Assembly: GCA_023267435.1 (NCBI GenBank)
Contig: JAHFNH010000002.1
Location: 88,706-152,705 of the forward strand
Source: Candidatus Nomurabacteria bacterium
GTDB taxonomy: Bacteria > Patescibacteriota > Minisyncoccia > Phycocordibacterales > UBA9973
DNA: 64,000 nucleotides
Direction of reading: 5' to 3'
Below, one piece after another: positions 2,587 to 63,953 of this stretch. A model generated the notes under the pieces. It had not been told where the DNA came from. It saw only the letters and a list, made by a program, of their open reading frames with translations, and searched no databases. Numbering within the stretch: position 1 is the stretch's first letter; each line of letters begins with the position of its first letter. Made by a program: the position numbers and the translations under genes.

Positions 2587-2657
2587 CGGGCGATGAGAGA
2601 ATCGAACTCCCACCAAAGGTTTTGGAGACCTTCGTTCTACCATTAAACTAATCGCCC
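2587..2657 (-). tRNA. trnW: tRNA-Trp (anticodon CCA), CCA tail not encoded
   Basis: Hand-folded cloverleaf: acceptor GGGCGAT/ATCGCCC, anticodon loop CTCCAAA, T-arm GGGAG-TTCGATT-CTCTC; closely resembles E. coli tRNA-Trp. Confidence 0.9.
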
Positions 2658-4178: not shown

Positions 4179-5278
4179 TAGAGCAATTTGACAATATCGT
4201 GATAAGTAACGAGAAGCATTAGAATAATCAAAATAGCAAAACCAATCATGTTTACAGTATTAGCGACATTAGGATTGATACGTGAACCTTTAATTTTTTC
4301 AATCAAAAGAAAGAATAGACGTCCGCCGTCGAGTGCTGGAAATGGTATCAAATTTATCACTGCAAGATTTACGGAAATAAGAGCAGCAAAAGAAAGGAGG
4401 TATGCGAAGCCAAATTTATAAGCATCTCCTACGACACCCACCATGCCGACAGGTCCAGTGACTTCAGAAAAGCTACCTTTACCGTGTATACCCTGCGCTA
4501 TAAGCGTATAAAGCCCTACAACAGTACCTTTAGTAACAGACCAGTCCATCTTTAATCCCTCCCAAATAGCCAAGAAAAATGGCAATTTAGCCATTCCGAT
4601 CTGATCCATGGCGATACCAATACTAGGGTTACTACTAGTGGTATTCACAACTGGAATTATTTTAGTATTGTTTAATTCTTCTGTTTTACCGCGTAAATAA
4701 CCAACTTCAATTTCTTTACCTCCATGCGAAACAACAAAAGATTTTAATGAATCTGGATTTACATCTGAAACTACATCATTGCCACTTTTTACAGATATTA
4801 TTTTATCGCCAGATTTAAGTCCTGCCATCTCAGCTGGAGATTTTGCAAGAACAGATACTACAACTAAATGTACATTTTCCAATGCATAGTCTTTTGATTC
4901 CGTACCGACTGAAGTAGGAAGTCCAGACATAAATCCAAAAGAAAACAAAAGCCAAGCGAGTACGAAGTTCGCAAAAACTCCAGCAAAAAGAACAACTGCC
5001 TGCATGTATTTTGGTTTATTCACAAAACTTCGTGCACTATCAGCGCCAGTAGTATTTTCCTCATCTGGATTCTCTCCAAAAATTTTAACAAAACCTCCGA
5101 AAGGTATTGCGTTAAAAGTATATTCTGTCTCCCCTTTTTTAACGCCAAAAAGTTTTGGCGGAAAACCGAAACCAAATTCATCAACTCTGATGCCGAATTT
5201 CTTCGCACTGAAAAAATGTCCGAATTCATGAACCAAAACCACCACAAGTAAAATTATTATAAATATAATAGCGTTCAT
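4178..5278 (-). CDS. rseP: RIP zinc metalloprotease (site-2 protease, M50 family) with one PDZ domain
   Basis: HEFGH zinc motif at N-terminus, PDZ segment, NLIPFPALDGGRL C-terminal motif. Confidence 0.9.
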   Translation of the reverse strand: MNAIIFIIILLVVVLVHEFGHFFSAKKFGIRVDEFGFGFPPKLFGVKKGETEYTFNAIPFGGFVKIFGENPDEENTTGADSARSFVNKPKYMQAVVLFAGVFANFVLAWLLFSFGFMSGLPTSVGTESKDYALENVHLVVVSVLAKSPAEMAGLKSGDKIISVKSGNDVVSDVNPDSLKSFVVSHGGKEIEVGYLRGKTEELNNTKIIPVVNTTSSNPSIGIAMDQIGMAKLPFFLAIWEGLKMDWSVTKGTVVGLYTLIAQGIHGKGSFSEVTGPVGMVGVVGDAYKFGFAYLLSFAALISVNLAVINLIPFPALDGGRLFFLLIEKIKGSRINPNVANTVNMIGFAILIILMLLVTYHDIVKLL

Positions 5279-5283
5279 TAGAA

Positions 5284-5835
5284 TTATCCTAGAACTTCTA
5301 TTTCTTTCTTTTCAAAAATAGATTCTAGATTATTATTAACCTCATCTACTAATTTTTGGATTTCTTCTTTGGCATTAAATTTTTCATCTTCAGTCATTTT
5401 GCCTTCTTTTTCTTGAGATTGAACATCGTTCCAAACATTTTCGCGTTCTTTGCGGACTGTGATTCTAGCTTCTTCCATTTTTGTTTTTAAAACTTTTACT
5501 AAAGTTTGTCTTGTTTCAGTTGTTAATTGAGGAAAAATAACACGAATACCCATGTCATCGGTCGCGACAGATAAACCTAAATTTGCAGCGTTAATAGATT
5601 TTTCAATGCCTTTAATCTGACTTTTATCCCAAGGCACAATACGTAAAGTTTTAGGATCTTCTATAGAAACTGAAGCCACATTTTTGATAGGCTGATATGC
5701 GCCGTATACTTCGATAGAAACTCCATCAAGCACCATCGGTGACGCACGGCCAGTAGATAGCTGACTATATTCTTTACTCAAAAACTCCCCTGCTTTTTTT
5801 AATTCTATTTTAAAATTTGAAAAATTGTATTGCAT
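5284..5835 (-). CDS. frr: Ribosome recycling factor
   Basis: Full-length RRF-like sequence (…VSIEVYGAYQPIKNVASVS…). Confidence 0.9.
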   Translation of the reverse strand: MQYNFSNFKIELKKAGEFLSKEYSQLSTGRASPMVLDGVSIEVYGAYQPIKNVASVSIEDPKTLRIVPWDKSQIKGIEKSINAANLGLSVATDDMGIRVIFPQLTTETRQTLVKVLKTKMEEARITVRKERENVWNDVQSQEKEGKMTEDEKFNAKEEIQKLVDEVNNNLESIFEKKEIEVLG

Positions 5836-5856
5836 ATTTTGATAGTATATCAGAAA

Positions 5857-6603
5857 TTATAAATTTGGCACAACGATAGCCACTGATTCCATGAGAGATT
5901 TTACGGACGAACCAGGTTGACGCAAAAATTCTCGAACCTTAAAGAAATGCTTAAAAAAGCTAGTATCAATATCTGTCTTTTTTGAAAGAATTTTTCTGTG
6001 CAATGCCACTTCTAGTGCATTTAAGAATTTAGAAGCTCTTATGCGTGGAGATTCAAAATCTCCCTCTCCTTGATAAGGAGAGGGTTGGGGTGAGGTAGAT
6101 TCCTCATCTTCATCTTTTTCAGTTTTAGCAAATATTTTTAAAAATTCTATTCGATCAGCCAACTTCATACTAATAAATTTCTCAGCTTCTTTTATTGCAT
6201 CTTTCATTTCTGGCTTGGTAGAAATAAAATAAAACCTAGAAATAACAGTTTTTAACAATGCTGCCGTATCGGGCATGATTAAGAAAAAATGAGTATCAAG
6301 AGTGGGTTCTTCAAACATTTTCAAAAGAACTCCTTGAGCATCCAAAGTAAATTGATTAGCAGATATAACAAATACTTTTTTACCAGTGGAAAAACTTTTC
6401 TCAGTTCCAAAGGCTCTTAAATTTAAAGCATCATCTATTTTTAAATTATCATATGCAATATCGTAAAAATCAGGATTAGCGGATGTTTTTATATTTATTT
6501 CTTCAAGAAAAGAAATTATTTCCGGTAATATTTCATTACGTGATCCTTCTATCAGATATGCGTGATGTAGGTTGTCTTTATCTAAATGCTCTAAAATATT
6601 CAT
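5857..6603 (-). CDS. holB: DNA polymerase III delta-prime-like clamp-loader subunit (AAA+ without Walker A), with a GC-rich hairpin-rich insertion in the C-terminal region
   Basis: HAYLIEG, KMFEEP (LKTLEEPP-like) and SRF (SRC-like) motifs; low-complexity stretch DEDEESTSPQPSPYQGEGDFESP encoded by palindromic DNA at 6040..6110. Confidence 0.6.
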   Translation of the reverse strand: MNILEHLDKDNLHHAYLIEGSRNEILPEIISFLEEINIKTSANPDFYDIAYDNLKIDDALNLRAFGTEKSFSTGKKVFVISANQFTLDAQGVLLKMFEEPTLDTHFFLIMPDTAALLKTVISRFYFISTKPEMKDAIKEAEKFISMKLADRIEFLKIFAKTEKDEDEESTSPQPSPYQGEGDFESPRIRASKFLNALEVALHRKILSKKTDIDTSFFKHFFKVREFLRQPGSSVKSLMESVAIVVPNL

Positions 6604-6611
6604 ATGAGCGA

Positions 6612-7625
6612 TTATTTTTTACTTAAAACAGTTTTTTTGTATACGTCTAAATGTTCTAGTGCTATACCTGTGCCTTTTACAACACAAAAAAGAGAATCTT
6701 CTGCGAGAACTGCTTTTACGCCAGTCTTTCTGTAAACCAAATCAGTAAAACAACGCAACTGAGAAGAACCTCCAGTCATAACAATGCCGTGATCAATAAT
6801 ATCAGAAGCGAGCTCTGGAGGAGTTTCTTGCAGGACATCTTTTATAGCTTTAATAACTTGTTTTAATTCACTGTCTATCGCTTTCACTATTTCATTGGTT
6901 CCGACTTGAGCAGAACGAGGCAAGCCTTGAATAAAATCTCTTCCTTTGATGGTGACACGGAGTTCTTCTTCGAGAGCAACAGCCGCACCGATTTTTATTT
7001 TTACTTCTTCAGCAGTTTTATCACCGATAGCTAGATTGAAAGTTTTTTTAATATAATCTGCGATAGCCTGGTCGATTTTATTTCCGGCGCATTTCACGGA
7101 AGTCGAGGCCACTATTCCTCCTAGAGATATAACTGCGACATCCGTCGTGCCTCCGCCAATATCGACAACCATGTGACCCTTTGATTCGTAAATAGGAATT
7201 CCTGCACCGATAGCTGCAAGAATTGGCTCCTTCACCACGTATGCATTTTTTGCACCGGCGCGAATTGCAGCCTCGACGACTGCTCTGCGTTCTGTTGAAG
7301 TCACGCCGGCTGGAACTGAAACCATCACATCTGGTTTAAATAAATTAAATTTACCCATCGCTTTATTTATGAAATATCGAAGCATTGCTTCAGTCACGCG
7401 GTAGTCTGCTATCACTCCGTCTTTCATCGGGCGATAAGCAATAATAGAATCTGGAGTTTTGCCGATCATATCTTTCGCTTCAAAACCGATAGCTAGGATT
7501 TTATTATCTTGTTCTGAAACAGCCACCACGGAAGGCTCGTTTAAAACGATACCTTTACCAGGCACGAAAACCAATGTATTAGCGGTTCCAAGATCTATTC
7601 CTATTTTCTTTGAAAACATTCCCAT
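6612..7625 (-). CDS. mreB: Rod shape-determining protein MreB
   Basis: Actin-fold motifs GIDLGTANTLV, DIGGGTTD. Confidence 0.92.
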   Translation of the reverse strand: MGMFSKKIGIDLGTANTLVFVPGKGIVLNEPSVVAVSEQDNKILAIGFEAKDMIGKTPDSIIAYRPMKDGVIADYRVTEAMLRYFINKAMGKFNLFKPDVMVSVPAGVTSTERRAVVEAAIRAGAKNAYVVKEPILAAIGAGIPIYESKGHMVVDIGGGTTDVAVISLGGIVASTSVKCAGNKIDQAIADYIKKTFNLAIGDKTAEEVKIKIGAAVALEEELRVTIKGRDFIQGLPRSAQVGTNEIVKAIDSELKQVIKAIKDVLQETPPELASDIIDHGIVMTGGSSQLRCFTDLVYRKTGVKAVLAEDSLFCVVKGTGIALEHLDVYKKTVLSKK

Positions 7626-7663
7626 AGGGCTAAATATAGCATAAGTTATGTTAGAATAAAACT

Positions 7664-9592
7664 ATGAAAATAGTGACGGTAATTCCACTTAAAAAAGGAG
7701 CTTTTAAGGAAAATCTGACCTATTTCACCTCGAAAGATATACCTGATGGAAGTATTGTGACTGTGCCTATGCGCAACAGTCAAATTCTTGGTTTAGCTGT
7801 CTCTTCTGAAGAAGCAACAGACACCAAGTCCGACATAAAAAATCTTAAATTTAATTTAAAAAAAATAACTGAAGTAAAAGAGAATTCTATTTTCTTAAAA
7901 GAATATATCGAGTCCACTCTCGAAATAAGCAAATATTTTAGTTCAAAGAAAAATGATGCGATCGTATCTCTTATACCAGCAATATTACGCGAAGAGTATG
8001 ACAAGATATCTAAATATAAAAATGAAACAGAAAATGTAAAAGAAGTAGAAAATAATTCTGTAAAATTAAAAAAAGAAAAATTACTTTTTCAATTTCCATT
8101 CGCCGACCGTATTAATTTTTATAAAACTTTAATTCGCGGATCCTTCGCTGAAAAAAAATCTGTCTTCATTGTATTACCGACTGAAATAGATATAGAAAGT
8201 TTTTCCAATGCACTTTGCAAAGGCATAGAAAATTTTACTTTCATTATGCACGGAGGATTGAGTTCAAAAAAAGTATTGAAAAATTTCGAAGAAATCATTA
8301 CATCCACACACCCTGTACTCATATTTGGTACTGCACCATTTCTTTCAATTCCCCGCCGAGATTTCGGGACGATTATCGTAGAACACGAAAGTTCTAATGC
8401 TTACAGAATGATCAGCCGGCCATATTTCGACTTACGTTCCTTTGCAGAGCTTTATGCTTCAAAAATAGGCGCAAAACTAATACTAGGAGATTCATTGCTC
8501 CGTTTTGAAACAATAGCTCGAAAAGAAATAGATAATTTTTCAGAAGTTCATCCATTATCTTTTAGAATAAATTTCGAGGGAGAAATAAAGATTCCTAAAA
8601 AAGAAGATAAATTTAAAATACTATCTGATGACAGTATCGAAGAAATAAAAAATAAAATTTCAAAAAAAGAAAACGTATTTATTTTCTCACTTCGAAAAGG
8701 CCTAGCATCTGAAACACTCTGTCAGGATTGTAACAATCCTGTCATGTGTGAAAAATGTTCTGTGCCTGTCGTTCTGTATTTATCTAGAGATAGTAAAAAA
8801 AGAATGTTTGCCTGCAATAGATGCAATACTGAAAAAGACCCTGAAACCAGATGCCTGCACTGTAATAGCTGGAATTTAATGCCACTCGGCATAGGTACAG
8901 ATACAGTCTACGAAGAAGCAAAAAAACTTTTCCCTAAAACTAAAATTTTCCAACTCGACAAAGAATCTGCCAAGACTGCTAAAGGTGCAGAAAAAATCAT
9001 GAAAGAATTTGAAGAAAATTCCGGATCAATCCTCGTCGGGACTGAAATGGCACTTTTATATATGAAAGAACCAGTAGCTCTGTCAGTTATCGCTTCCTTT
9101 GATTCTCTTTGGAGCGTACCGAGTTTTAAAATGAATGAGAAAATTATTCAGCTCATTGTATCGATAATTTCTAAGACAAAAGAGGAACTAATCATCCAAA
9201 CTAAAAATGAACAAGACCCTGCTATTCATGCAATTAAGACTGAAAATGTTTTAGCTTTTGTGCGCGAAGAGCTAGAGGACAGAAAAAACCTTGGCTATCC
9301 GCCATTTAAAAGATTTATCAAAATAACACACATGGGTAGTAAAGAAGAATCAGATCATACTAAAAAAGCATTAGCGGATGTCTTTAAAGACTACGACCCA
9401 GATATTTTCGGTGGTTTTATAAATAAAATAAAAGACAAGTATGTCACCAATATGCTTGTAAAACTAGACCCTAAAAAATGGTCTCTATCTGAACTATCAT
9501 CAAATTCTGAAATAGATGAAAAACTCCTCTCAAAACTCCTCTCTCTCCCGCACGAATTTTCAGTAACCGTTGATCCAGAAAATTTGTTGTAA
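7664..9592 (+). CDS. priA: Primosomal protein N' (PriA)-like with degenerate ATPase motifs
   Basis: PriA-like N-terminus, Cys4 zinc region (CQDC…CEKC…CNRC…CLHC), LVGTEMAL motif. The Walker A position reads IRGSFAEKK (no GxGKT) and the DEEH box reads VEHE. Confidence 0.65.
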   Translation: MKIVTVIPLKKGAFKENLTYFTSKDIPDGSIVTVPMRNSQILGLAVSSEEATDTKSDIKNLKFNLKKITEVKENSIFLKEYIESTLEISKYFSSKKNDAIVSLIPAILREEYDKISKYKNETENVKEVENNSVKLKKEKLLFQFPFADRINFYKTLIRGSFAEKKSVFIVLPTEIDIESFSNALCKGIENFTFIMHGGLSSKKVLKNFEEIITSTHPVLIFGTAPFLSIPRRDFGTIIVEHESSNAYRMISRPYFDLRSFAELYASKIGAKLILGDSLLRFETIARKEIDNFSEVHPLSFRINFEGEIKIPKKEDKFKILSDDSIEEIKNKISKKENVFIFSLRKGLASETLCQDCNNPVMCEKCSVPVVLYLSRDSKKRMFACNRCNTEKDPETRCLHCNSWNLMPLGIGTDTVYEEAKKLFPKTKIFQLDKESAKTAKGAEKIMKEFEENSGSILVGTEMALLYMKEPVALSVIASFDSLWSVPSFKMNEKIIQLIVSIISKTKEELIIQTKNEQDPAIHAIKTENVLAFVREELEDRKNLGYPPFKRFIKITHMGSKEESDHTKKALADVFKDYDPDIFGGFINKIKDKYVTNMLVKLDPKKWSLSELSSNSEIDEKLLSKLLSLPHEFSVTVDPENLL

Positions 9593-18342: not shown

Positions 18343-18414
18343 TGAGTGTGGATGGAATCGGACCATCGACCTCTGTCTTATCAGGACAGCGTTCTACCAC
18401 TGAACTACACACTC
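18343..18414 (-). tRNA. trnI: tRNA-Ile (anticodon GAU)
   Basis: Hand fold: acceptor GAGTGTG/CACACTC, anticodon loop CTGATAA, T-loop TCCGATT. Confidence 0.85.
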
Positions 18415-33136: not shown

Positions 33137-33235
33137 ATGCTGTTACTTAATCACAAAAACGCGTTTCTAAACAGATACGCGTTTTATTTTTTTCTTTTTT
33201 ATAAAAAAATGTTATATTAAAAAAGTTAGTTACAT

Positions 33236-33310
33236 GGCCTCATCGTCTATCAGTTAGGACACAAGCTTCTCAAGCTTGGAAGCTGGGTGCGATTCCCAGT
33301 GAGGTCACCA
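33236..33310 (+). tRNA. trnE: tRNA-Glu (anticodon CUC), 3' CCA encoded
   Basis: Hand fold: acceptor GGCCTCA/TGAGGTC, anticodon loop TTCTCAA, T-arm CTGGG-TGCGATT-CCCAG, then ACCA. Confidence 0.8.
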
Positions 33311-33405
33311 TTTAGAGCTAGCACGAGAAGCATAGAAAATTTAAATAAAAAAACTCCCACCTAAATAATATAGGTAAGAGTTTTGTAAAATTTACTTTTT
33401 AAGTA

Positions 33406-34101
33406 TTAATCAATGGCAGCAGAAAAAGATACAAACGATTCATTGTAAAGTAAAGTCTGAGAAATATCCAAGACTCTATGTGTTTTTTTAACTTTAACGA
33501 TAGTAGTAGAACCATCTTTTAGCTTTACGTAAAATAAATTCGCTGTGCCATCTATAAGTAGACCATCATAAGTTTCGTCTTTAACATGAAATTTAGCATG
33601 AAAAAGCATTGACCATAGTACTCGAACAAAATTTTTGAAATCTATTGGTGTTAAACGATTAAGTTCTCCTCTGAGTACACCCGCTAATTTACCTTCAAAA
33701 GCATCCTTAGAAAAATTATCAATTTTTCTAAGCTTAGTTCGACTTTCAAATTCTAATGTTATATTCCTAAAAGGAGTTATAAAATTATCAAAAAACTCCT
33801 CTGTTAAATATAAATCAATTCCGAGTTGCCTAGAACTGAAATCCCCAAACTTATCTGGAAGATCTAATTTAGAAAGATTTAAAATTATTATGTTCCTAAT
33901 ATTCGCATGATTTTTTATCATACTTCCAGTAAAGAATCCTTTATTCACTAAATATTCAACCGCTTCTGTTATTAATTTTTCTTTAATAACTTTACTCGTC
34001 ACATCGTTCGGATTTATGCCCATATTTTTAAGAGCATTTTCATACCCCAAAAGCAATTCATGCCCTTGAGTGTGACTAATTACCTGGCTTACATTTTTCA
34101 T
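33406..34101 (-). CDS. Hypothetical protein (231 aa)
   Basis: ORF only; first gene of the tRNA-adjacent accessory stretch. Confidence 0.5.
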   Translation of the reverse strand: MKNVSQVISHTQGHELLLGYENALKNMGINPNDVTSKVIKEKLITEAVEYLVNKGFFTGSMIKNHANIRNIIILNLSKLDLPDKFGDFSSRQLGIDLYLTEEFFDNFITPFRNITLEFESRTKLRKIDNFSKDAFEGKLAGVLRGELNRLTPIDFKNFVRVLWSMLFHAKFHVKDETYDGLLIDGTANLFYVKLKDGSTTIVKVKKTHRVLDISQTLLYNESFVSFSAAID

Positions 34102-34240
34102 TTTGCATACCGTATTAAATTAACAAATTACATTATGTCCTTTTAAGGACATGGCCGATATCGTGGAATCGGTTACCTTTACCATTTATTTTACACTACA
34201 ACTTACTTTCTAATTTAGCAAGAAAAAATTCTAAATACCT

Positions 34241-34281
34241 TTATATTACTTATAATAAGGTTCCAATTCCGTCCCGTTTGG
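34241..34281. repeat. 41-nt direct repeat R1 (ttatattacttataataaGGTTCCAATTCCGTCCCGTTTGG) downstream of the secreted-protein cassette
   Basis: 36/41 identical to R2 at 34952..34992. Confidence 0.8.
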
Positions 34282-34329
34282 CTCACAAAAAGATACTTAT
34301 ACGAAAAGTATCAATACCTATCTTTCAAT

Positions 34330-34358
34330 AAAAAAACGCACCATTTAAGATGCGCTCT
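34330..34358 (-). terminator. Terminator of gene 34374..34826 (minus: agcgcatcttaaatggtgcg + U-run)
   Basis: Imperfect hairpin plus T-run. Confidence 0.55.
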
Positions 34359-34373
34359 AATAATTTTATTTAT

Positions 34374-34826
34374 TTAAAACCAATCACCAATTTTACCCTT
34401 AACTCCGAGAGGAGCTTTGTCATCATAAAAATGAACAAAATAATCCTCTACCTTAAGATTAAAATCTTTCCATTTAATCAGAAAGTTTGGATATTCTTTA
34501 CTGTATCGAGAATCTTTAGAAAAAAAATCAATCGGGTATATTTTTGATTCTCCTTTCTTAAGGACATCTCCTTCAGCAATACCACCTGTATGCCACATCT
34601 GTGTTTTCATGTATGGTTCATAATAATAACCACTTTTTGTGCCAACAATAACTTTCTCACATAATAAATTGGTAATTCCCCAGTATTTCTTACCATCTTT
34701 TTGTAAAACACAAATTTTTATACTATCGTTATTTATTTTTTTAATTGCGTAAGTGGTGTAAGTTTTTTGACCAAATACAAGCATACAGGACAACATATAA
34801 GTTGTCAGAATAATTAGTGTTTTCAT
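34374..34826 (-). CDS. Secreted hypothetical protein (150 aa, signal peptide)
   Basis: N-terminal MKTLIILTTYMLSCMLVFGQ; own promoter and terminator; flanked by R1/R2. Confidence 0.6.
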   Translation of the reverse strand: MKTLIILTTYMLSCMLVFGQKTYTTYAIKKINNDSIKICVLQKDGKKYWGITNLLCEKVIVGTKSGYYYEPYMKTQMWHTGGIAEGDVLKKGESKIYPIDFFSKDSRYSKEYPNFLIKWKDFNLKVEDYFVHFYDDKAPLGVKGKIGDWF

Positions 34827-34874
34827 TTTATTTAAGGTTTTTAAAGAAGTTAATACTTATTTCTATCTAAATTC

Positions 34875-34905
34875 AGATTACCATATAAATCATTGACTTG
34901 TCAAT
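34875..34905. promoter_or_regulatory. Bidirectional promoter module copy D: TTGACttGTCAA with TGgTAATCT extended -10 toward gene 34374..34826
   Basis: Same architecture as modules A, B, C. Confidence 0.6.
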
Positions 34906-34951
34906 TATTACGTGGGTACAACTCAATGTGTAAGTACAACACCGAAATTAC

Positions 34952-34992
34952 TTATATTTCTTACTATAAAGTTCCAATTCCGTCCCGTTTGG
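34952..34992. repeat. 41-nt direct repeat R2 upstream of the secreted-protein cassette
   Basis: ttatatttcttactataaaGTTCCAATTCCGTCCCGTTTGG. Confidence 0.8.
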
Positions 34993-35002
34993 GACACAGA
35001 AA

Positions 35003-35037
35003 ATAAAAAAGACCTAACAAATGTGTTAGGTCTTTTG
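35003..35037. terminator. Bidirectional terminator (aagacctaacaaatgtgttaggtctt)
   Basis: Hairpin with A/T flanks, 3' of gene 35057..35554. Confidence 0.75.
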
Positions 35038-35056: not shown

Positions 35057-35554
35057 TCACACTCTGTAATTTTTATTAAAATCATTAATCACAAAGGAAA
35101 GAAGATCAAATCGCTGTTCCCATCTGATATTAACTTTCTCTGTGCTGTATGATTTAAACTGAGCATTAATATCTCCAACCTCATAACCTGAAGAAATAAT
35201 ACATTCAGTTTTTAATTCCATAGTCCATATATATTTTTCATATCCTTTTTCAATGTATTCATCGGGCTTACTCGAACGGGAGCAAGTCATTCGAACATTT
35301 ACACATTGATCGTGTTTTTGAAAACAAAAAATTAAAATACTATGGAACATGTTTATTGTTAATTCAATGTGCCCGGCAATAGGTTTACCATCTTTTCTTG
35401 AAATGGAAAAATCCACTTCCTTTATTATTGTTCCATTACGATCTGTGATTTCTTCTTTTCCAATGGCATGTTTTAAGTATGCTTTATACATTTTTTCGAG
35501 ATTCTTAGGATCAAAACCAATCTTTGGTTCAGTTTCCTTTTTAAATGTTTCCAT
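35057..35554 (-). CDS. Hypothetical protein (165 aa)
   Basis: ORF only. Confidence 0.5.
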   Translation of the reverse strand: METFKKETEPKIGFDPKNLEKMYKAYLKHAIGKEEITDRNGTIIKEVDFSISRKDGKPIAGHIELTINMFHSILIFCFQKHDQCVNVRMTCSRSSKPDEYIEKGYEKYIWTMELKTECIISSGYEVGDINAQFKSYSTEKVNIRWEQRFDLLSFVINDFNKNYRV

Positions 35555-36209: not shown

Positions 36210-36252
36210 AAAAACAAAAATACCAGTGACTCTCATTTGAGAGACACTGGTA
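36210..36252 (-). terminator. Terminator hairpin overlapping the stop codon of gene 36233..36853
   Basis: taccagtgactctcatttgagagacactggta plus U-run on minus strand. Confidence 0.6.
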
Positions 36253-36853
36253 TTAATTCAGCTGCTATTTTTTTGTCGGGACAGCTGGAAAGCTTCGCTA
36301 ATTCTTTTAATTGCTTGGCACAGGTTTGATACAGAACAAGAGTTTCTTTGGTCATCGGCTCAGGTCTGTCATTGTTATGAAAACCAATTATAGTGCCAGC
36401 CAATACGCACAGTTCTTCGAAAGTCATCTCTTGAACATTTTTTTTACAAGTTATGTTCATTCGCAATGCGCCTTTCTCTATGGTCAAGCTGTCGAATGGC
36501 ACTATAATGTAATGTATGGAAATATTTGAAAAGATATTTTCTATATCCTTATCAAACTTTTTCCATAACAATGTCTGCGCTTCAGTAGAATCGCCATAAG
36601 TGTGGCTATTCATAACAAGGCAGAATTCAAGCAGATTCGAAGCATTTTGAGCGGCAGTAAGGTAAGTGCTGGTAACAGTGGGTAATGCTACATCAAATGG
36701 ATCGATTTTACCCTTTTGTGCTTTTGTTTCGTAAGCTTCTTTAGCCTGCAACATTTCCTGGTAACTTGCATCAAATTTTTTCGACACGCAGTCGTTTTGA
36801 GCATGTGCCAGCGGTCCTAAAAGAACCACGAGAATTAGAATTATTTTTTTCAT
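36233..36853 (-). CDS. Secreted hypothetical protein (206 aa, signal peptide)
   Basis: MKKIILILVVLLGPLAHAQ signal peptide. Confidence 0.55.
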   Translation of the reverse strand: MKKIILILVVLLGPLAHAQNDCVSKKFDASYQEMLQAKEAYETKAQKGKIDPFDVALPTVTSTYLTAAQNASNLLEFCLVMNSHTYGDSTEAQTLLWKKFDKDIENIFSNISIHYIIVPFDSLTIEKGALRMNITCKKNVQEMTFEELCVLAGTIIGFHNNDRPEPMTKETLVLYQTCAKQLKELAKLSSCPDKKIAAELIPVSLK

Positions 36854-37562: not shown

Positions 37563-39107
37563 CTAATTTGTTACAACTAATTGATTGGGAGAAGAAACCG
37601 CCAGGTCAAAATCTATCATATATAATCGTGGTACGCGTTTAAAATCAACATTCTCTTTTTCATCCCTAAAGAAACGAAGACAAAAATTGCGTTCATGAGA
37701 ATGGCCGTGTTTTATTTTTAACTTATTTAAAACTTTGATTATTTTATCTTTTTGTTCTCGCAATTCATCCACAAAAATTTCAGTTTTATCCGCCCAATCC
37801 GATAAATTTAAATCTAAAACACCACTATAGACATCGACCAAACCTTCCTTATTTAATTTATAAGATTGTATTGGTTCTATAGGCACATAATCAAAACTAG
37901 CTTCTTTCCATTCAGCGTAATCTTCATAAAGCTTCTGCCAAGTCATAAATGCTTCCGGTTTTATATGTCGTATTATTGTTTTATCTTTTAATTCACCACC
38001 AATCAATGTGAGACCAGAACCAGTTTTTTCAAATTCTTGTCTTGAGAAAGTTTTTTCATCAATTTTTTTATTGTCATATAAGGGTGATTTGATTAGTTCT
38101 TCACCTAACCCTTTTTCTATCAGCAAATTTATTAATTCTTTTTTATTTTCTTCCGGTACTGCCCAAAGCATTTTTACATATGCTTTTTGTATATCGACAT
38201 TGTGATTTTCAATACCCCTTTTTACTTTTTCTAATATTTTTATTTTTAAATTAACCGCATCTTCGTCAGGCACTGATCTCAGTATACCTACAGCTGCGTT
38301 TTGTATTTCAATATTTGGATTTTCCAGACACAAATTAATCAAATAACCTCTTTCTTTATATAATGCATTTTCGATCATTCTCACAGAGATCTTTTGTATT
38401 TCAATACTTGGATTTTCTAATCCCAGTTTAATCAAAGATGTTCTTTCTTCTTCGGGTACCAATCCCATTATTGATGCAGCTGCTTTTTGTATTTCAAAAT
38501 TTTGATTTTCAAGGCATTGTTTAACAAAAACAGATCTGCCTTTATATGGTAAATCTCCAATCATGCCTATATATGCCTTCTGTATTTCAACATTCGGATT
38601 TTCAAGACCCTCTTTTACTTTTTCTACAAGATCTTTTTTAAAAGAATCTTTTTCTTCATCTGACAACAACCAAAACATTCCGGTAGATATCTTTTGTATT
38701 TCAACATTTTTATTTTCAACCCCCAGCTTGATTAGAGATGCCTTATCTTCTTCTGGTGCAAATTCAATCATTTTTACGGAAGTCTTTTGTATATCAATAT
38801 TTGAGTTTTCAAGACCGAGCTTGATTAAAGATGTTCTTTCTTTTTCTGGTGCAGATGTAACCATTTCTGCAAATTCCCTTTGCACTTCAGTTATATGATT
38901 TAAATTTTGCTTCGGGGAAAATTTTTTTTCTTTTAAAGGCGGAGCATTTTCTATTTGTTCTCTAATGAGATTATCTTGATTTTTATCTTTTATATATCTT
39001 TTAAAACTATGTTCTGTTATTGAGTTTTGACCAGAAATCTCATACATTTTCAAGTATTCTGGCGTTATAGATTCTAGTTTTTTGATCTCTAAATTTGATT
39101 TTTCCAT
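37563..39107 (-). CDS. HEAT-like repeat protein with C-terminal atypical protein-kinase-like domain
   Basis: Seven or more ~33-aa repeats (…SLIKLGLENPNxEIQKxSVxMI…); the C-terminal 180 aa carry HGHSHERNF and YMIDFDLAV, reminiscent of RIO/APH catalytic and DFG-like loops. Confidence 0.55.
   Translation of the reverse strand: MEKSNLEIKKLESITPEYLKMYEISGQNSITEHSFKRYIKDKNQDNLIREQIENAPPLKEKKFSPKQNLNHITEVQREFAEMVTSAPEKERTSLIKLGLENSNIDIQKTSVKMIEFAPEEDKASLIKLGVENKNVEIQKISTGMFWLLSDEEKDSFKKDLVEKVKEGLENPNVEIQKAYIGMIGDLPYKGRSVFVKQCLENQNFEIQKAAASIMGLVPEEERTSLIKLGLENPSIEIQKISVRMIENALYKERGYLINLCLENPNIEIQNAAVGILRSVPDEDAVNLKIKILEKVKRGIENHNVDIQKAYVKMLWAVPEENKKELINLLIEKGLGEELIKSPLYDNKKIDEKTFSRQEFEKTGSGLTLIGGELKDKTIIRHIKPEAFMTWQKLYEDYAEWKEASFDYVPIEPIQSYKLNKEGLVDVYSGVLDLNLSDWADKTEIFVDELREQKDKIIKVLNKLKIKHGHSHERNFCLRFFRDEKENVDFKRVPRLYMIDFDLAVSSPNQLVVTN
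38190..38870. repeat. Tandem ~99-nt coding repeats inside the HEAT-repeat gene
   Basis: Recurring …tcttttgtat(a/t)tcaa(t/c)a…ttttcaa…gat(g/c)… units are visible at the nucleotide level. Confidence 0.7.
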
Positions 39108-53632: not shown

Positions 53633-53719
53633 CGGAAGCGGTGAGATTTGAACTCACGATGAGGTTTCCCCCATGCTGGTTTTCGAAACCAGTGCCTTCA
53701 ACCACTCAGCCACGCTTCC
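53633..53719 (-). tRNA. trnS: tRNA-Ser (anticodon CGA), long variable arm
   Basis: Hand fold: acceptor GGAAGCG/CGCTTCC, anticodon loop TTCGAAA, long variable arm, T-arm GTGAG-TTCAAAT-CTCAC. Confidence 0.85.
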
Positions 53720-53765: not shown

Positions 53766-53837
53766 TGACCCTACAGAGAATCGAACTCTGATTACCGCCT
53801 TGAAAAGGCGATGTCCTAACCGTTAGACGATAGGGCC
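53766..53837 (-). tRNA. trnE: tRNA-Glu (anticodon UUC)
   Basis: Hand fold: acceptor GGCCCTA/TAGGGTC, anticodon loop TTTTCAA, T-arm CAGAG-TTCGATT-CTCTG. Confidence 0.85.
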
Positions 53838-53880
53838 ATCCAAATAACTTAACCAATATAACATTTTTATAATAAAATGC

Positions 53881-56920: not shown

Positions 56921-56993
56921 GCGCGGTTAGCTCAGTTGGTAGAGCGACCCCTTGACGTGGGGTAGGTCACAGGTTCGAATCCTGTATCGCGCA
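56921..56993 (+). tRNA. trnV: tRNA-Val (anticodon GAC)
   Basis: Hand fold: acceptor GCGCGGT/ATCGCGC, anticodon loop TTGACGT, T-arm ACAGG-TTCGAAT-CCTGT. Confidence 0.85.
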
Positions 56994-63304: not shown

Positions 63305-63376
63305 GTCTTCGTAGTTAAATGGATATAACGACTCCGTCCTAAGGAGTAGTTGCAGGTTCGATTCCTGCCGAGGACA
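63305..63376 (+). tRNA. trnR: tRNA-Arg (anticodon CCU)
   Basis: Hand fold: acceptor GTCTTCG/CGAGGAC, anticodon loop GTCCTAA, T-arm GCAGG-TTCGATT-CCTGC. Confidence 0.8.
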
Positions 63377-63880: not shown

Positions 63881-63953
63881 GCCGAGATAGCTCAGTTGGT
63901 AGAGCGCTCCCCTGAAGAGGGATAGGTCCCCAGTTCGACCCTGGGTCTCGGCA
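63881..63953 (+). tRNA. trnF: tRNA-Phe (anticodon GAA)
   Basis: Hand fold: GCCGAGATAGCTCAGTTGGTAGAGC…, anticodon loop CTGAAGA, T-arm CCCAG-TTCGACC-CTGGG. Confidence 0.88.

Follow-up and report, generated by a model that had tools for sequence, protein, structure and literature searches.

Two short direct repeats enclose a gene for a signal-peptide-like protein near tRNA-Glu(CUC) in a Candidatus Nomurabacteria contig, which raises the question of whether they mark the ends of a mobile gene cassette, and what kind of site they represent. The CPR/Patescibacteria have very small genomes with few recognised mobile elements, and the gain and turnover of their accessory genes are poorly understood. 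These accessory genes include genes for secreted and surface proteins, which probably mediate the episymbiotic lifestyle. Here we analysed the whole stretch of 64,000 nucleotides (64 kb) that contains the repeats, referred to as the window. A sequence-only reading of the window had suggested recombination (att) sites, or copies of a repeat element that mobilised the cassette.

The repeat pair R1/R2

The two repeats, R1 and R2, are present where the sequence-only reading had placed them, in the same orientation and 711 bp apart. Over the 41 nt that it had compared (34241-34281 and 34952-34992), 37 of the 41 positions are identical, rather than 36. The similarity that it had seen beyond these 41 nt on the 3' side continues to 34291 and 35002, so that R1 and R2 share 44 of 51 positions (86%) by the repeat finder and by reading. 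A 22-nt core, GTTCCAATTCCGTCCCGTTTGG, is exact in both copies, which are its sole two sites in the 64 kb with up to three mismatches allowed, and it was absent from 100 shuffled sequences. A profile built from related copies matched the window at 34231-34290 (E = 4e-18) and 34942-35001 (E = 1e-17), the next-best match having an E value of 1.3.

The two intergenic regions that carry R do not align with each other outside the 51-60 nt of the repeat. Neither the repeat finder nor the folds revealed inverted repeats within R, and a tandem-repeat scan of the window detected no CRISPR-like array around it. A CRISPR array or a solitary CRISPR repeat (the core ends in ..ATTGGAAC) was rejected, as there is no array and the copies are spaced by 500-1050 nt containing genes. 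No cas domains were found in the scanned ORFs.

R1 possesses a right-hand extension, with 81-85% identity over about 100 nt in the alignment, which defines a long variant of R. The extension holds a conserved sigma-70-like pair, TTGCTA (34221-34216) and TAGTGT (34198-34193), separated by a 17-nt spacer, which may be a promoter. It is common to R1, to the copy on L011 and to copies 1 and 4 of L001, all of them ahead of unrelated genes.

Genes and transcription signals around the repeats

Genes A, B and C, which surround the repeats, are all encoded on the minus strand (Table 1). The complete unit described by the sequence-only reading between the repeats was recovered with its promoter-like site, its signal-peptide-like ORF and its terminator; its strand had to be corrected to minus. 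In the direction of the minus strand, the order is gene C, terminator, R2, about 120 nt, gene B, terminator, R1, about 135 nt and gene A, followed by the terminator of gene A, a 45-nt trailer and tRNA-Glu in antisense. On the plus strand, the layout is accordingly tRNA-Glu, trailer, gene A, R1, gene B, R2 and gene C. On the coding strand R2 is upstream of gene B, and R1 is downstream of the gene B terminator. Each R follows the terminator of one gene and precedes the next gene by 120-140 nt, and this order places each R between the terminator of one gene and the promoter of the next. The promoter-like site of gene B is located downstream of R2, outside the conserved element.

Table 1. Features of the window at and around the R1/R2 locus. 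Positions are those of the 64,000-nt window.
Feature	Position	Strand	Description
tRNA-Glu(CUC), array anchor	33236-33310	+	same orientation as the reverse complement of R1/R2
Trailer 3' of tRNA-Glu(CUC)	33303..33353	.	CCA-TTTAGA-GCTAGCACGAGAAGC-ATAGAAAATTTAAATAAAAAAA
Terminator of gene A	33350..33384	-	terminator prediction
Gene A	33406..34101	-	231-aa ORFan downstream of R1, in the cassette between R1 and the tRNA; 30% GC
R1 right-hand extension (long R variant)	34185..34230	-	81-85% identity over about 100 nt (alignment)
R1, boundary-element copy	34231..34291	-	minus-strand sequence TGTGAGCCAAACGGGACGGAATTGGAACCTTATTATAAGTAATATAAAGGTATTTAG; repeat finder, core scan, profile, alignment
Intrinsic terminator of gene B	34333..34358	-	terminator prediction
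Gene B	34374..34826	-	150-aa cargo ORF between R2 and R1; signal-peptide-like N-terminus MKTLIILTTYMLSCMLVFGQ
Promoter-like site of gene B	34875..34904	-	TTGACA, 18-nt spacer, TAATCT; consensus match only
R2, boundary-element copy, short variant	34942..35002	-	repeat finder, core scan, profile, alignment
Intrinsic terminator of gene C	35007..35036	-	ends 5 nt before R2; z = -5.5
Gene C	35057..35554	-	165-aa ORFan upstream of R2; 31% GC
tRNA genes of the window	2587-2657, 18343-18414, 33236-33310, 53633-53719, 53766-53837, 56921-56993, 63305-63376, 63881-63953

No Pfam family was found for genes A, B and C, and gene A had no homologue among 5.8 billion proteins. The protein of gene B has only one homologue, a distant one of 54% identity (L015, 10001-10516). 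The sequence-only reading had called for a search for the cassette in other contexts; this homologue does lie in an unrelated neighbourhood, but there is no R nearby. The C-terminus is strongly conserved between the two proteins (DYFVHFYDD.APLGVKGKIGDWF). The gene B family appears to consist of rare secreted proteins to which no function is assigned. The AlphaFold model of gene B is all-beta with low confidence (pLDDT 59), which is too poor to justify a fold search. Gene C may belong to the same accessory islet, although it has no R upstream.

The GC content of genes A-C is 30%, compared to 35.5 +/- 3.6% for the other genes of the window. Neighbouring genes have housekeeping functions and encode RmuC, a GreA-like protein, a CBS protein, EngB, a mur/PBP cluster, ATP synthase and FtsZ. 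The GreA-like neighbour had no relatives in the protein database. Exact-protein look-ups for orthologous loci recovered nothing beyond the contig itself and a Logan contig identical to it (L003), and the databases hold no sequenced close relative or strain variant of the window locus.

Two further repeats were observed in the genes beyond gene C. An inverted repeat at 36219-36254 (17-nt arms with 94% complementarity and a 2-nt loop) overlaps the 3' end of a gene for a 206-aa secreted protein and is probably its terminator. A 93-nt tandem repeat at 38690-38866 (1.9 copies, 80% identical) is located within a HEAT-repeat-like gene of 514 aa (37563-39107) and reflects internal repeats of that protein.

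The R family in other genomes

The sequence-only reading had recommended a search for further copies of the core, and these were found. We used an exact 20-mer scan of one genome per species and a 19-mer scan of metagenomes, followed by BLAST and an nhmmer profile. The 20-mer scan detected the core twice in L001, a Minisyncoccia (Patescibacteria) MAG, plus one chance match in a GC-rich gene. The metagenome scan added the contigs L006, L008, L009, L011 and L013. The data set comprises at least about 14 copies on seven contigs, three of which come from one metagenome. The element consists of TGTGACCCAAACGGGACGGAATTGGAACC followed by TTATTGTAAGnAATATAAGGGGATTTAG, and is about 57 nt long (up to about 105 nt). 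With nhmmer, four copies were found in L001, three in L013, two each in L009 and the window, and one plus a partial copy in L011.

All copies within any one contig have the same orientation and are 0.5-1.05 kb apart, with one or two small genes in each interval. Only R and the trailer are common to the arrays, as all cargo proteins are unrelated in all-against-all tblastx and blastn comparisons. The cargo includes a methyltransferase, an NlpC/P60 hydrolase, a membrane protein and many ORFans, with miscellaneous Pfam domains or none. The sequence-only reading had considered the repeats too long for target-site duplications and had seen in them copies of a repeat element; this is borne out by the R family, which bounds unrelated single-gene units in other genomes. 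That reading had also held that a core found nowhere else, with the same arrangement in relatives, would argue for a remnant of local duplication, and instead R recurs beside other genes. From these comparisons, R1 and R2 are evidently real copies of a repeat family whose members stand between unrelated small accessory genes, arranged head to tail, in several Patescibacteria.

L006 and L008 represent more distant genomes, in which only the core of about 30 nt is kept. The MurF of L008 shares only 40% identity with that of the window, whereas the core keeps 29-30 of its about 31 bases between the two; this conservation goes far beyond what neutrality would predict. L009, L011 and L013 are short metagenome contigs that break off inside R, as is typical of assemblies at repeats with several different neighbours. 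Viral contigs (searched with three sub-patterns) and phage and plasmid collections (searched with BLAST) gave only chance matches or none for R, and literature searches returned no description of such an element in Patescibacteria.

Several matches were discarded as copies of R, namely L002, L010, L014 and the group L004, L005, L007 and L012, which share the 19-20-mer by chance or belong to something different. In the last group, the R 19-mer (L004 6236-6256, L005 234-253, L007 490-510, L012 3583-3603) lies inside a different region, which is conserved over more than 150 nt (..CACGTGGCCATACCGAGGCAACGGGACGGAATTGGAACTACACCGAGCACAG..) and unrelated to R outside the 19-mer. The contig L006 carries a separate 97-nt direct repeat (857-953 and 2699-2794, 76% identical) along with its distant R core. 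Directly beyond the array of L001 there are genes for a DUF4238 protein (4456-5406) and for a 755-aa protein without Pfam family (5731-7998), which places this array within a larger accessory region.

Conservation profile of R

In an alignment of 11 R copies, conservation sets in sharply at (T)GTGACC and tapers off toward the opposite side, the pattern predicted if one edge were a recombination junction. The body of R consists of a near-invariant GC-rich block, GTGACCCAAACGGGACGGAATTGGAAC, followed by a semi-conserved AT-rich block, CTTATTGTAAGnAATATAAGGGGATTTAG. The first 27 nt, which form the GC-rich block, are invariant. Four copies (R1 of the window, L011, and copies 1 and 4 of L001) share a further 45 nt with TTGCTA-N17-TAATGT.

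The tRNA-Glu(CUC) gene and its trailer

The proximity of the cassette to tRNA-Glu(CUC), pointed out by the sequence-only reading, was confirmed. CA directly follows the discriminator base in all eight tRNA genes of the window, and only tRNA-Glu(CUC) among the eight encodes a full CCA. This gene also has the lowest tRNA-model score, 51 bits compared to 58-72. The low score and the encoded CCA would be consistent with recombination having exchanged the 3' end of the gene.

The trailer, 50 nt directly 3' of tRNA-Glu(CUC) and a single-copy motif in the window, is homologous to the sequence next to the sharp edge of R in L001 (688-740) and L009 (63-115), with 83% identity and E values of about 1e-8 to 6e-8. 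In the alignment, homology runs to ..ATGGTGACC, where the tRNA body switches to the R body. The trailer GCTTCTCGTGCTAGC..ATGGTGA is thus joined to the tRNA-Glu body in the window, to the R body in L001 and L009, and to unrelated DNA at the far end of L001; across these junctions blastn E values range from 1e-8 to 6e-7. There, beyond the array, the trailer recurs at 4263-4300; with the trailer at both ends, the four-copy array of L001 is bracketed by 38-nt direct repeats. The trailers of L001 (703-738 and 4263-4300) and L009 (65-115) contain a perfect 12-nt palindrome, CGTGCTAGCACG, which is degraded to GCTAGC in the window copy. The palindrome could be a protein-binding site of the junction.

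The end of R resembles the ends of tRNA-Glu genes (GGGTCA+CA). The reverse complement of R ends in ...TTGGGTCA+CA, and tRNA-Glu(UUC) of the window genome ends in TAGGGTCA+CA. R shares GGTCAC with the CUC gene and GGGTCACA with the UUC gene. Identity to the end of the adjacent tRNA-Glu(CUC) amounts to only about 6-8 nt, which indicates that R is not a copied partial tRNA. A partial or pseudo-tRNA was also rejected, as neither ARAGORN nor the tRNA covariance model gave a match and alignment scores to tRNA-Glu did not exceed those to other tRNAs. The sole tRNA likenesses of R are the terminal GGGTCA+CA and a T-loop-like GGTTCCAATTCC.

R as a candidate boundary site of a cassette array

We tentatively favour, at somewhat less than an even chance, that R is an att-like boundary site of a tRNA-anchored array of single-gene cassettes. 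R looks like an apparently undescribed cassette-exchange site. In this model, R (about 57 nt, up to about 105 nt) would mark the boundaries of single-gene accessory cassettes, which would line up head to tail from the 3' side of tRNA-Glu(CUC) as their anchor, each with its own promoter and terminator. R would act most likely as double-stranded DNA. The crossover point would be located at the outer edge of R, GTGACC (GGTCAC on the tRNA strand), coinciding with the 3' end of tRNA-Glu. The invariant 27-nt GC-rich block and the adjoining AT-rich block would be bound by a recombinase whose gene lies elsewhere in the genome, and cassettes would be gained, lost or exchanged when two R copies, or R and the tRNA end, recombine. 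Recombination, either site-specific or homologous between R copies, is what we infer as the role of R, and the crossover position is likewise inferred.

The oriented arrays, the unrelated cargo, the sharp edge, the near-invariance, the mimicry of the tRNA end and the junctions at which flanks are swapped together give R the look of a site bounding a cassette array. This combination of features would be hard to obtain from a duplication, a dispersed MITE or a regulon. The low GC content of genes A-C and the metagenome contigs that break off inside R also speak for the cassette reading. The att-type site suggested by the sequence-only reading fits the link to tRNA-Glu, but no recombinase was found: Phage_integrase or recombinase domains were absent from 48 ORFs of the window, which covers 64 kb of a 312-kb contig, and from the 8-kb locus of L001. 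The short identity to the tRNA also counts against recombination, as does the fact that R has neither an attC fold nor the dyad symmetry typical of tyrosine-recombinase core sites. Neither an empty site nor a circular junction came to light, and no cassette was encountered in identical form in two contexts. By inspection, R does not fit dif/Xer sites, a sigma-54 promoter (the -24/-12 spacing is one nt short) or an ECF-type promoter.

If the preferred reading is true, a 57-nt boundary site that stacks ORFans beside a tRNA would be a compact mechanism of gene capture in the CPR, and R would offer an easy sequence marker by which to find their flexible genes in metagenomes. A wider proposal is possible, though rather unlikely, namely that Patescibacteria own a hitherto undescribed integron-like cassette system, in which cassettes with their own promoter and terminator are captured and shuffled at the 3' end of tRNA-Glu through an unstructured 57-nt site with a tRNA-mimicking edge, by a recombinase acting in trans.

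Possible regulatory features of R

About nine of the twelve R copies are followed by a co-directional gene, which counts against the recombination reading in that a regulatory role would account for it too. R could instead be an expression or regulatory module that travels with accessory genes, in the form of an operator or upstream element for a dedicated regulator, a small RNA or a leader ORF. We regard this as rather unlikely, though a serious rival; if it is true, R would be a rare conserved cis-element in the CPR. The small RNA would be a plus-strand transcript that starts at the invariant TACAAT/TTATATT boxes and ends in the bidirectional terminator of the neighbour, and the leader ORF would have 22-24 codons on the minus strand with a GTG start.

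The promoter-like extension in four copies (TTGCTA-N17-TAATGT) speaks for a regulatory module. So do TACAAT and TTATATT, invariant hexamers on the strand opposite to the genes, which are similar to the -10 box that precedes both tRNA-Glu genes. In front of each of these two genes of the window (33195-33235 and 53838-53877) there is a promoter-like AAAAATGTTATATT box at equal distance to the tRNA, and its TTATATT is also invariant inside R on the same strand. On the gene strand, the core of R has no well-spaced sigma-70 pair, the best being TTGGAA-15-TATAAG. Behind three copies (L001 copy 3, L013 copy 1 and L006) the next gene is convergent or missing, and the 57-nt core is therefore more than a plain promoter or something else. 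Anything from 44 to 134 nt separates R from the following start codon, and promoters belonging to the cassettes themselves lie downstream of R. The cargo is without functional coherence, and the junctions between tRNA and trailer are left unexplained by regulation.

A micro-ORF runs through R on the minus strand from GTG (V/M-TQTGRNWNLIVxNIRGF..). It is open over 22-24 codons in eight of the 11 copies and begins with ATG in L006, and some of the changes within it are synonymous. Nonetheless, two copies are broken, L008 by a stop at codon 3 and L001 copy 1 by a frameshift, and there is no Shine-Dalgarno sequence. Variation by codon position (11/17/23) is not 3-periodic, and the first nine codons are invariant at all positions. 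Given the broken copies and the lack of periodicity, a coding role was rejected and retained solely as a minor rival. No RNA structure, covariation or Rfam match was found in support of an RNA.

Transposable-element and local-duplication readings of R

It is improbable that R is a small non-autonomous transposable element (MITE-, REP- or PATE-like) inserting after terminators, with the arrays arising from target preference. R does resemble such elements as a short intergenic repeat that is conserved across genomes and often lies directly after terminator hairpins and T-runs. However, it lacks terminal inverted repeats and end hairpins, and no transposase was found. The two copies in the 64 kb are adjacent and co-oriented, and copies on the same contig always form direct repeats. 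A single scan for the exact 20-mer found it nowhere in the L001 genome but at the array locus.

A remnant of local tandem duplication of an intergenic or promoter region, which two same-orientation copies 711 bp apart could suggest, is very improbable, since the similarity is limited to 51-60 nt, genes A, B and C and the remaining spacers are unrelated, and the presence of the same element beside other genes in other genomes already contradicts it.

Folding of R and the integron explanation

R does not fold into a recognisable structure. The DNA folds of R1, R2 and L001 copy 3 were no better than shuffles on both strands (z = -0.4 to -1.3), and the DNA and RNA folds of R on either strand gave z = -0.3 to -1.3 with the terminators of neighbours set apart. 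The consensus fold of 11 copies reached -2.4 kcal/mol with essentially no compensatory pairs and no covariation. In a search of the window with Rfam 15, only tRNAs reached the gathering score, and nothing relevant was found around R at E <= 10. Without a fold, covariation or an Rfam family, R is not attC-like, and the attC-like structure that the sequence-only reading had proposed to look for is not supported.

An integron cassette array with R as attC is likewise scarcely credible: the mostly co-oriented single-gene units separated by a repeat are reminiscent of one, but R forms no attC hairpin, its boundary is without GTTRRRY/RYYYAAC cores (CCCAAAC, GTTCCAA and GTTTGGG are off consensus and without an inverted partner), no IntI-like gene was found in the 48 window ORFs or in L001, and the cassettes carry their own promoters and terminators.

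Comparison with known systems

The closest known logic to the att-like reading of R would be that of tRNA-anchored islands built by successive integrations, and that of integron cassette arrays. The locus nevertheless differs from tRNA islands and integrons in the features that define them: R was not copied from part of a tRNA, there is no attC fold, and a search for an integrase gave none.

Prochlorococcus tycheposon islands are anchored at tRNA genes and built by successive integrations (10.1101/2020.12.28.424599). Their repeats correspond to about 40 nt of the 3' part of the tRNA, and the elements are several kb in size with integrase and replication modules; integrase-less remnants are common, and new insertions push older ones away from the tRNA (10.1101/2020.12.28.424599). 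Similar to these islands, the window locus has a full-length tRNA at one end, same-orientation repeats amid variable cargo, and a repeat that ends where the tRNA gene ends. The same flank is joined to the tRNA in the window and to R in L001 and L009, as would be expected of a tRNA-targeting island. In contrast to tycheposon islands, R has only about 8 nt (GGGTCACA) in common with the ends of tRNA-Glu genes, the units hold single genes and measure 0.5-1 kb, no integrase was seen, and R is near-identical across distant genomes.

Integrons and CALINs possess arrays of attC-bounded cassettes, CALINs being attC clusters without an integrase. The R arrays share with them the unrelated, mostly co-oriented single-gene cassettes with one repeat copy each, stacked at one chromosomal site, and a boundary near one edge of the repeat. 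However, neither the attC structure nor R'/R'' core motifs are present in R, and there was no sign of IntI, attI or Pc. Each cassette brings its own promoter and terminator, and R is placed 5' of the genes. The R array is not a member of the integron/CALIN family.

In dif-integrated elements and Acinetobacter pdif modules, small modules are bounded by Xer sites and the housekeeping recombinase is encoded elsewhere. R arrays are similar in that small gene modules are bounded by copies of a short conserved site, but R does not have the 11-6-11 dyad of dif; by reading, the arms match at 5/11 and the inner positions at 2/5. In the minimal mobile elements of Neisseria, accessory genes are swapped between conserved flanks without a dedicated mobility gene, and conserved intergenic repeats can anchor homologous recombination. 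The R arrays likewise hold accessory genes between conserved flanks, and no recombinase was found at those of the window and L001. Unlike the anchors of the Neisseria type, which are whole conserved genes or dispersed repeats, R is a dedicated 57-nt element in a local array.
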